Below, one piece after another: positions 54,001 through 64,000 of a stretch of 64,000 nt of DNA. Location: the NCBI RefSeq assembly GCF_057098645.1, contig NZ_CM169472.1. One strand, written 5' to 3'. The position numbers are program-made. The first letter of the stretch is position 1. Each line of letters opens with the position of its first letter.

Positions 54001-57000
54001 CGCCTCAATACTGACTGGACGCATAATGGTGTAACGCGCGCCAGCATTCGCTTCCTCATAACTTTTAATACCGCTGGAGAGTGAATCCGGAGAGTAGTAA
54101 TACTCGCCAAACAAACGGAAGCTGTTGCCAATTTTCCACTGCAAACCACCTCCTACCGCTGCGGCATAACCTTCATCGCCGTAATTCGGGTTGGTGTAAA
54201 CGCCTTTTCCGCCAACGGTCGCCATTAACGGCCCGAGAGGCAGATTCAACCCCAGCCCCACGCCCGCGACGTCACCGTCGTCGTCGTTATGTGTCCAGTT
54301 ACCGCTTAACGCCAGGCCCGTCGATTCAGTCCCAAAACCGACACCAATATTGGTGTATTCTTTACCCGCCTGGCCGCTGATGCTCATTGCATTGACCGAT
54401 GCAGAAACCAACAGCATTCCGGCCAGACCTGCTAGCGCAATTTTTTTCATTATCCCCTTTCCCACAAGCAATTAATCAAAATTCCCAAAGCTGCGGGATT
54501 GTACTGCCTGGCGCAGAGGATTCAATGAGCGAAAAAAGGGATCTAGTCACTTATTGTAACTAAATACTTCTTAAATAATTAAACGCCGAAAAAATAAACA
54601 CAGCTTACCGATACACACAAAAATAATAATAAGTGCAGTTATCATCGCAAAAGAGATTACTGTCACTTTCACATATTTCTGAGTTACCGTATTCTCATGG
54701 TTTCTTTTTATTTATAAGGAATACCCCTGTGCGACAACGGACTATTGTATGCCCTTTGATTCAAAATGATGGTGCTTATTTGCTGTGTAAAATGGCCGAC
54801 GATCGCGGCGTTTTCCCCGGTCAATGGGCGCTTTCGGGTGGCGGCGTGGAGCCCGGCGAACGAATTGAAGAGGCACTACGCCGCGAAATTCGCGAAGAAC
54901 TGGGAGAACAGCTGCTTTTGACAGAAATCACGCCGTGGACCTTCAGCGATGATATTCGCACCAAGACGTATGCAGATGGTCGCAAGGAAGAGATTTATAT
55001 GATTTACCTGATTTTTGACTGCGTTTCTGCCAACCGAGAAGTGAAAATAAACGAAGAGTTTCAGGACTACGCGTGGGTAAAACCTGAAGATCTGGTGCAT
55101 TATGATTTGAATGTTGCCACCCGAAAAACGTTACGTTTGAAAGGTCTTCTTTAACAATGATGACAGCCATCACTGGCTGTCAGATTGAAAATTTAGTGGT
55201 TAACGAATTCCCCATCCAGATAAACTTTGCCTTTTTCCACATGCATGACTAAACCATCCAGATAATCAGGTTTAAATGTCGCATCACGCTTATCTTTAGC
55301 AATATATGTCAGGCAATGATTATGGGTAAAAATAACGATATTTTTATCAGGTGCTTTTCTTTGTAAGTCTTTAATTGCACTATAAATCTCATTACCGCAT
55401 TGAAGAAGTCGTTTATCTACCGTCAGCTTTTTACCCGCTGAAAACCAGGTCGCCGACTGAATGGTCCGGACGGTATTACTGGAATAAAGATCGAAATCAG
55501 GGATATCAGCGCTAAAAGCGTTGCCCAGTTCACGGGCATCCTGGGTACCTTTAACCGTAATACCTGTTTTATCTGACAAGCATTGATTGGTTGAACGATC
55601 GCAACGTTCAGCATGGCGAAACAAAACGACAACCGGGTGCTGCTGCGCCAGTCTGGCCAATGTTTTATTGTCGATACGTGGCAAACCATTGCTACTCCAG
55701 GCGGCATGAGTACCCAGTCCGGCAATTGCAGCGAGCGCCAGTAAAATGATGAAATATTTTTTTGACTTCAATGATGAGCGGCAAAAAGCTAACACGTAAA
55801 CTCCACCTATAGACAAGCGCAACCAGACAATTACCGTGAAATTGAGCGACATTTCTGGCGATAATTAGCAGTTGGTGTAATATTAAAATCCTACGATGTC
55901 GGCAAAATGCCTCAAAATTTTGCCAAATGCAAAGCCTAAATAAGAAAAAATATAAAAATTTCAATATTTACGTCTAATATTAGTTTCTTAAGGTTAAGTT
56001 AATATTCTATCCTTAAAATTTCGATCCAAATGGCAAAATATACACAACACTCTTTATAGCAAATATAAGTGGACAGGTATTCAATGGCGGAAGGAAAAGC
56101 AATGTCAGAATTTTTGCCTTTTTCGCGACCAGCAATGGGCGTGGAGGAACTCGCTGCAGTTAAAGAGGTTCTCGAATCTGGTTGGATCACAACCGGTCCG
56201 AAGAATCACGCGCTTGAACAAGCCTTTTGCCAGTTGACGGGAAATCAGCATGCCATCGCGGTCAGTTCAGCCACCGCCGGAATGCATATCACGCTAATGG
56301 CGTTGGAAATTGGCAAGGGTGATGAAGTGATTACGCCTTCCCTGACCTGGGTTTCAACCCTCAATATGATTTCCTTGTTGGGTGCAACGCCGGTAATGGT
56401 GGATGTCGACCGCGATACGCTGATGGTCACGCCTGAAGCTATCGAGTCAGCCATTACGCCACGCACTAAAGCCATCATTCCGGTGCATTATGCCGGTGCG
56501 CCAGCAGATATTGACGCCATTCGCGCCATTGGCGAACGTTACGGCATCGCAGTTATCGAAGATGCAGCCCATGCCGTCGGTACGTATTACAAAGGGCGAC
56601 ATATTGGCGCAAAAGGTACCGCTATTTTTTCGTTTCACGCCATCAAAAATATTACCTGTGCGGAAGGTGGCCTGATTGTTACTGATAATGAAAACCTTGC
56701 CCGCCAGCTACGGATGCTGAAATTTCACGGTCTGGGTGTCGATGCCTATGACAGACAAACCTGGGGCCGTGCACCGCAGGCTGAAGTCTTAACGCCGGGC
56801 TATAAGTACAATCTGACCGATATTAACGCCGCGATTGCCATGACACAGTTAGCCAAATTAGAGCACCTCAACACCCGTCGGCGCGAAATTGCCCAGCAAT
56901 ATCAGCAAGCACTGGCAGCTCTCCCCTTTCAGCCATTAAGCCTTCCCGCCTGGCCGCACGTTCACGCCTGGCATCTGTTTATTATTCGTGTCGATGAACA

Positions 57001-63000: not shown

Positions 63001-64000
63001 CCGCGTCACTGGTGTGGGGTGGCGTTCATTATTGGTGGCATTGTGATCCTCGGGAGTACGGTGTAATGGGCCTGATGTGGGGATTATTCAGCGTCATTAT
63101 TGCCTCAGTTGCGCAATTAAGCCTGGGTTTTGCGGCGAGTCATCTGCCGCCGATGACGCACTTATGGGATTTTATCGCGGCTCTGTTAGCTTTTGGGCTG
63201 GATGCCCGGATACTGTTACTCGGGCTGCTGGGTTATCTGCTTTCCGTTTTTTGTTGGTATAAAACACTACATAAACTTGCGCTAAGCAAAGCCTATGCCT
63301 TGCTCAGTATGAGTTATGTGCTGGTATGGATTGCTTCAATGGTACTTCCCGGCTGGGAAGGGACTTTTTCGCTGAAAGCACTACTGGGAGTAGCCTGTAT
63401 TATGAGCGGGTTGATGCTGATTTTCCTGCCCACGACAAAACAACGTTACTGAGTTTTCCCTGCCGCTGTACACTGCCGTTCCCACTCATCGGGGCTATAA
63501 CAGCTTGCAGAGAGGACTTTCACCGTATGCAGCTTTTCACGATTAATACAATAAAGCGCATTCTGCAAAGGCGAGAGTAAATCCCCCACTTTCACGGCGA
63601 AGTCACTCTTCACTTCGGCGATCATTTTTATCGCGCCGCCAGCATCGCAGAGCATAAGTACATGTCTGTTATCTTGTTTATTGCAGCACGATTTTTTGAC
63701 CAGCCATTCCATTGCATTATCCTGTTTGATAAGAGTTTTCACATCAATTTACAGATTAACAGATAAACCTATTATCAACGGCAATGGAATGGCAGAAATG
63801 AGAAGTGAAACGGAGGGTTAATTATTGCTGACGTTGCACCCACTCTTTTAGCACCTGACGTGAAATTTTAATACCGCCGTTTTTCAGTTCAGGCGGCAAC
63901 GTTAACCAACGCACCGGTTGCTGAAAACGGGCCAGCTTATCTTTCACCCATTCACTAAGATCAACGCTCTCGTGGTCATACTCCATCACCGCCACCGCTC

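Follow-up and report, generated by a model that had tools for sequence, protein, structure and literature searches.

The DNA analysed here, a stretch of 64,000 nucleotides (nt) from contig NZ_CM169472.1 of NCBI RefSeq assembly GCF_057098645.1 (the window), raises a simple question: does its interval 55987-63712 hold an intact, PmrA-controlled system for modifying lipid A with 4-amino-4-deoxy-L-arabinose (Ara4N), and if so, where does translation of the first gene, arnB, begin and what does the neighbouring pmrD gene contribute? We consider that this interval is almost certainly the chromosomal arnBCADTEF operon (also named pmrHFIJKLM or pbgPE) of an Escherichia coli O145 strain, with a divergent ais gene upstream and a convergent pmrD gene downstream. 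An earlier note on this DNA had described an intact and canonical Ara4N module, and this description held: the locus is identical to that of annotated O145 genomes and collinear with K-12, its genes have the K-12 lengths and no internal stop codons, and their products pass the NCBIfam cut-offs. No observation speaks against this identification, and the operon is an already known locus with nothing novel or unusual.

The identification rests in the first place on a megablast search of positions 55100-64000 against all complete E. coli genomes. The match to E. coli O145 chromosomes was 100% identical over the full length, and the locus was found in 5422 of 5426 genomes, on the chromosome every time, with at least 80% of the query covered in 5411 of the 5422 matching genomes. 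This part of the window therefore belongs to the E. coli core genome. Like almost all E. coli, the strain would be normally equipped on its chromosome to modify lipid A with Ara4N on induction. What decides its polymyxin phenotype would therefore be regulators and mutations elsewhere (basRS, phoPQ, mgrB, eptA, mcr genes), and not the arn locus. The value of the locus is thus one of annotation, with one useful by-product, namely comparative evidence that the start of the 379-amino-acid ArnB chosen by the Prokaryotic Genome Annotation Pipeline (PGAP) is the conserved one.

At the level of alleles, just 28 of the 5422 genomes were at least 99% identical to the 8.9-kb haplotype of positions 55100-64000, the remainder lying in the 95-99% band, and in the arnB 5' region O157:H7 already departs from the window at 3 of 141 positions. 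The O145 allele is therefore fairly lineage-specific.

For gene coordinates, we took those that PGAP assigns in the identical genome, carried them to the window and verified them by translation (Table 1). The order in that genome is nudI, ais, arnB, arnC, arnA, arnD, arnT, arnE, arnF, pmrD and menE, as in K-12 MG1655, whose ais-arnBCADTEF-pmrD locus (b2252-b2259) has the same order, orientation, lengths and stop/start junctions. A listing of open reading frames (ORFs) over 54000-64000 gave, on the plus strand, 56069-57241, 57245-58213, 58213-60195, 60192-61082, 61082-62734, 62731-63066 and a frame holding 63066-63452, and on the minus strand 55193-55852 and 63446-63742. The seven arn genes are co-directional, contiguous and undisrupted in the order B-C-A-D-T-E-F, and their junctions are either overlapping or, between arnB and arnC, separated by 3 nt. 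The four stop/start overlaps named in the earlier note were read directly from the sequence (arnA/arnD, ATGA; arnD/arnT, TGATG; arnT/arnE, ATGA; arnE/arnF, TAATG), and a fifth was missing from its list, the TAATG of arnC/arnA at 58210-58215. The convergent pmrD shares 7 nt with the 3' end of arnF. Both flanking genes that had been called intact, ais and pmrD, are present, although ais (55193-55795) lies outside the interval 55987-63712 to which it had been assigned.

All of the genes compared (10/10) had the K-12 length and zero internal stops, with 97.2-99.2% nucleotide identity to K-12. These lengths and open frames rule out pseudogenization or disruption of any of them. The number of amino acid differences ranged from 0 to 11 per protein, amounting to 33 substitutions over the nine proteins from Ais to PmrD. 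Each of these nine products scored above the curated NCBIfam cut-off of its own family (Table 1), the models being equivalogs for the seven Arn proteins and PmrD, and a subfamily model for Ais. In addition, the ArnB sequence is nearly the same as those of the Salmonella and Klebsiella enzymes whose structures have been solved, and its alignment with PDB 4OCA indicates that the lysine mutated to alanine in that structure, presumably the PLP-binding lysine, is retained in the window. None of the ArnA substitutions relative to K-12 falls at positions 102, 104, 140, 433, 434 or 619, which we take to be catalytic residues. Base composition was ordinary (GC 0.39-0.56), and an Rfam scan of 54500-64000 at a permissive E-value matched no RNA family (no known riboswitch, leader or small RNA).

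Regarding the control of the operon, a PmrA (BasR) box had been placed at 55987-56003, and it was recovered there as CTTAAGGTTAAGTTAAT, with one mismatch to YTTAAK-N5-YTTAAK. One result weighs against giving much credit to the motif itself: over the whole window, the pattern with at most one mismatch occurred 4 times, compared to 2.8 expected, a non-significant excess, so that the count alone proves nothing. The weight of the box comes instead from where it lies relative to the arnB transcription start site (TSS), at -41 to -25, from its identity with K-12 and from its conservation upstream of arnB. The TSS was placed on the window through the K-12/window alignment, from a K-12 differential RNA sequencing table that gives a primary site for arnB and a site for ais (PMC12987492; Table 1). 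The sequence flanking position 56028 is the same as in K-12 save one base, at 56024, and the whole ais-arnB spacer is almost identical, with a 1-nt indel. The box itself is identical in K-12, O157:H7, ST131 and ATCC 25922. To broaden this comparison, 120 arnB-like loci were gathered with a degenerate FLPFSRP...WITTGP pattern, one genome per species; a PmrA box with at most one mismatch stood no more than 300 nt upstream of the conserved arnB start in 21 of 32 Enterobacterales loci, compared to 1.56 (maximum 5) in shuffled sequences. These observations are consistent with binding of PmrA at 55987-56003. A generic promoter and terminator scan returned counts similar to those of shuffled sequences (11 vs 10.8 and 10 vs 10.4, respectively) and missed the arnB promoter; it was not used as evidence. 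A literature search for BasR footprints on arnB gave one tangential paper.

Related systems were compared with the window. The orthologous locus of Salmonella enterica, pmrHFIJKLM (pbgPE) with pmrG and pmrD, shares its pathway and PmrA-box logic with the window, and K-12 has an identical box and a nearly identical promoter. In Klebsiella pneumoniae, the enzymes of the pbgP operon, known for its feedforward connector loop, are orthologous to those of the window and a PmrA box likewise lies upstream of the operon (PMC2565834). By contrast, the Klebsiella operon possesses, in addition, a PhoP box and a second arnB promoter that depends on PhoP (PMC2565834), whereas a scan of the ais-arnB spacer of the window at up to three mismatches found no PhoP-box-like site on the arnB strand.

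The mechanism that follows is established for the K-12 and Salmonella orthologues and is extended to the window strain by orthology. Phosphorylated PmrA (BasR) would bind the direct-repeat box over the -35 region and drive transcription from about position 56028. Expression of the seven genes, which are closely packed and for the most part coupled in translation, would follow. UDP-glucuronate supplied by Ugd would be oxidatively decarboxylated by the C-terminal domain of ArnA, the product transaminated to UDP-Ara4N by ArnB, and UDP-Ara4N formylated by the N-terminal domain of ArnA. ArnC would move the sugar to undecaprenyl phosphate, ArnD would remove the formyl group, and ArnE/ArnF would flip the sugar carrier across the inner membrane. 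Finally, ArnT would place Ara4N on the lipid A phosphates, leaving a less negative surface with weaker binding of polymyxin and cationic peptides. PmrD, expressed from its own PhoP-dependent promoter, could shield phospho-PmrA from PmrB, in E. coli under some conditions only. The Ara4N pathway also requires ugd and the regulatory genes basRS, located elsewhere; the word "complete", used earlier for the module, is thus right for the operon itself and too wide for the pathway.

The point that had been left open, the start of arnB, proved to be a real discrepancy between annotations. The K-12 RefSeq record NP_416756.6 has a 385-amino-acid protein, equivalent to a start at 56084, and PGAP has a 379-amino-acid protein starting at 56102 in the genome identical to the window. 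We propose that the ATG at 56102, conserved across the family, is probably the main start, judging from comparative sequence evidence, and that the 385-amino-acid K-12 model probably includes six codons too many. Among the 120 arnB-like loci, an ATG stood 2-4 codons before FLPFSRP in 84, and an ATG at the position equivalent to 56084 was present in just 2, the window and E. albertii. Salmonella also carries an ATG of the latter type, as read from the construct sequence MAEGKMMSD in the PDB. A 1-nt indel puts the homologous ATG of the two Citrobacter species in another frame, where it reads ATG GCT TGA and meets a stop after two codons. At this position, Enterobacter, Kluyvera, Pluralibacter and others show either stops or unrelated sequence, yet an AAGGA-type motif is retained 6-8 nt ahead of the conserved ATG.

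The codons between the two ATGs also differ within E. coli. They read MAEGKA in the window and MTDGKT or MTDGKK in B2-type strains, a difference of four substitutions in 15 nt, every one of which changes an amino acid, and a density far above the divergence of about 1.6% for the whole of arnB. The ATG at 56084 lacks a conserved coding signal and is confined to Escherichia and Salmonella. The structures can be read alongside: Salmonella ArnB (1MDO, 4OCA) aligns end to end with the window protein, the MAEGK N-terminal extension included, and Klebsiella ArnB (8SNG) aligns with residues 7-384 of the long form and starts at the conserved ATG only. Since Salmonella ArnB was crystallised with the six extra residues and Klebsiella ArnB without them, these residues are probably of no consequence for the function of the enzyme.

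Several observations weigh against the start at 56102, or do not lend it support. The curated K-12 RefSeq record retains the 385-amino-acid form; the ATG at 56084 and its frame are kept in all of the intact E. coli sequences compared (5/5) and in E. albertii; an AGGT motif lies 5 nt upstream of this ATG, at a usable spacing; the energy of the Shine-Dalgarno duplex did not favour 56102 (-7.4 vs -5.7 kcal/mol); and the AAGGA before 56102 is weakened to ATGGA in B2 strains. The earlier note had credited 56102 with the better Shine-Dalgarno sequence, which is true of the core motif (AAGGA vs AGGT) and is not borne out by the duplex energies, which did not separate the two sites. Translation from 56084, with the 56102 ATG as an internal Met7, would fit the first three of these points as well as the Salmonella crystallography construct and the location of the 56084 ATG, which the transcript includes at 56 nt from the TSS. 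Both ATGs are within the mapped leader, and the TSS therefore does not discriminate between them. We regard a 385-amino-acid product as unlikely, given the absence or out-of-frame position of the upstream ATG beyond Escherichia and Salmonella, the amino-acid-changing nature of all inter-ATG substitutions, the PGAP choice of 56102, and the second ATG as the first position covered by both the ArnB family profile and the sequence of the Klebsiella structure.

The use of both ATGs, giving two isoforms that differ by six N-terminal residues or an upstream ATG that modulates initiation downstream, seems to us less likely still. Each ATG has a purine-rich motif at a workable spacing, both lie in the mapped 5' leader, and the upstream one is in frame throughout Escherichia; yet the six residues are not conserved, which makes a distinct isoform function unlikely. 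Initiation mainly at 56102 is thus the reading that we retain. Searches of the literature for data on the N-terminus or start site of ArnB returned nothing relevant.

Two variants of this region were seen in other strains. In the B2 strains ATCC 25922 and JJ1886, the change from AAGGA to ATGGA before the conserved ATG comes with a change of residue 3 of the short form from E to G, and the arnB translation-initiation region is unusually variable within E. coli. The second variant is E. coli MB06232, a seawater isolate (NZ_CM129885.1, positions 788-1510, corresponding to about 54700-56092 of the window), in which IS1A lies directly upstream of arnB. There, the sequence lacks nudI and ais as well as the PmrA box, the arnB promoter and the 56084-type ATG, homology to the window restarts 9 nt before the conserved arnB ATG, and arnB is annotated as intact. 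This strain offers a natural example of arnB with the 56102-type start alone, in which control by PmrA has probably been lost or replaced.

The last part of the question concerns pmrD, which is intact, next to the arn operon and in the same position as in K-12. Its translation start is the second ATG of an ATG array, as described for E. coli. The presence of a small pmrR gene near pmrD was considered and dropped, as neither K-12 RefSeq nor PGAP annotates one there. In the pmrD-menE spacer (63713-63821), four bases are changed compared to K-12, some of them within a candidate PhoP box, CGTTGATAATAGGTTTA. This site has two mismatches to KGTTTA-N5-KGTTTA, a pattern that is unspecific (192 matches vs 125 expected at up to three mismatches). 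Its second half-site, GGTTTA, is nearer to the consensus than the AGTTTA of K-12.

The PmrD connector had been called fully canonical. The orthologue is indeed intact; its function as a connector, however, is reported to be conditional in E. coli. Expression of E. coli pmrD is PhoP-dependent (PMC2565834). In low Mg2+, PmrA of E. coli is reportedly not activated by the PmrD of this species, PmrB being a strong phosphatase (PMC3140997; PMC2565834). Activation is described only for certain conditions or for a PmrB of weaker phosphatase activity (PMC3140997; bioRxiv 10.1101/2020.05.05.080051), and a later preprint reports an active connector with iron, low pH or strong PhoQ stimulation (bioRxiv 10.1101/2020.05.05.080051). 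In Salmonella, by contrast, the connector is robust in low Mg2+, a difference attributed to the strength of the PmrB phosphatase (PMC3140997). It is therefore plausible, if short of probable, that the module of the window strain is intact while its PmrD link from PhoPQ to PmrAB is effectively non-functional, a state originally described for the majority of E. coli isolates, with the operon answering PmrB signals only (Fe3+, Al3+, mild acid). Whether PhoPQ signals induce arn would depend on the basS allele, located outside the interval. The reports of E. coli PmrD inactive on PmrA in low Mg2+ with high PmrB phosphatase (PMC2565834, PMC3140997) favour such a situation, as does the ais-arnB intergenic region, free of PhoP-box-like sites on the arnB strand, whereas the better second PhoP half-site in the pmrD promoter of the window argues for a link that still works.

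A more speculative reading, which we consider rather unlikely, concerns the two ends of the operon. The ATG at 56084 may have been recently gained in the Escherichia-Salmonella group inside a sequence that other Enterobacterales have as 5' leader, giving dual or tuned initiation of arnB; separately, the pmrD promoter with its better PhoP half-site and the PmrD substitutions S71C, K82T and V83A may shift the strength of the signal from PhoPQ to arn. If the first of these were true, the 56084 ATG would illustrate, on a small scale, how leader sequence can give rise to an N-terminal extension.

Table 1. Features of the arn locus in window coordinates. Genes follow the PGAP annotation of the identical genome; scores are NCBIfam bit scores with the curated cut-off in brackets; aa, amino acids.
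Feature	Position	Strand	Basis and remarks
ais	55193-55795	-	GTG start; NF011945, 390.8 bits (142), profile beginning at residue 20 of the longer ORF, the GTG at 55795; K-12 length, 2 aa differences
arnB	56102 (PGAP, 379 aa) or 56084 (K-12 RefSeq model, 385 aa) to 57241	+	NF008658, 740.7 bits (631), profile beginning at residue 7 of the 385-aa form
arnC, undecaprenyl-phosphate 4-deoxy-4-formamido-L-arabinose transferase, 322 aa	57245-58213	+	NF007986, 672.9 bits (529); 1 aa difference from K-12
arnA, bifunctional UDP-glucuronate oxidative decarboxylase / UDP-Ara4N formyltransferase, 660 aa	58213-60195	+	NF005998, 1253.4 bits (777); 11 aa differences from K-12
arnD, 4-deoxy-4-formamido-L-arabinose-phosphoundecaprenol deformylase, 296 aa	60192-61082	+	NF011923, 520.7 bits (382)
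arnT, lipid A 4-amino-4-deoxy-L-arabinosyltransferase, 550 aa	61082-62734	+	NF009784, 812.6 bits (567)
arnE, flippase subunit, 111 aa	62731-63066	+	NF011625, 212.7 bits (92)
arnF, flippase subunit, 128 aa	63066-63452	+	NF002816, 140 bits (99); protein identical to K-12
pmrD, 88 aa	63446-63712	-	NF011994, 175.8 bits (96), full length; S71C, K82T, V83A relative to K-12
PmrA (BasR) box, CTTAAG-GTTAA-GTTAAT	55987-56003	+	Pattern match; overlaps the -35 region, -41 to -25
Candidate arnB -10 hexamer, TAAAAT	56014-56019	+	Read from the sequence; 8 nt upstream of TSS 56028
arnB primary TSS	56028	+	Transferred from K-12 position 2365854 (PMC12987492 Table 1)
ais TSS	55897	-	Putative in the window strain; transferred from K-12 position 2365723 (PMC12987492)
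Candidate PhoP box, CGTTGA-TAATA-GGTTTA	63780-63764	-	pmrD promoter, 52-68 nt upstream of the pmrD ATG

On the other side of the ais-arnB spacer, the minus strand upstream of the ais TSS reads TTGCAT-17 nt-CATTTT. A degenerate PmrA-box-like sequence, CTTATTTAGGCTTTGCA, with three mismatches, lies at 55927-55944 (-), about -47 to -31 of this TSS, and could conceivably be the PmrA site of ais. Between the convergent ends of nudI (55154) and ais (55193), a hairpin with a 9-bp stem, TGACAGCCAGTGATGGCTGTCA, occupies 55161-55182 and is plausibly a bidirectional terminator shared by the two genes.

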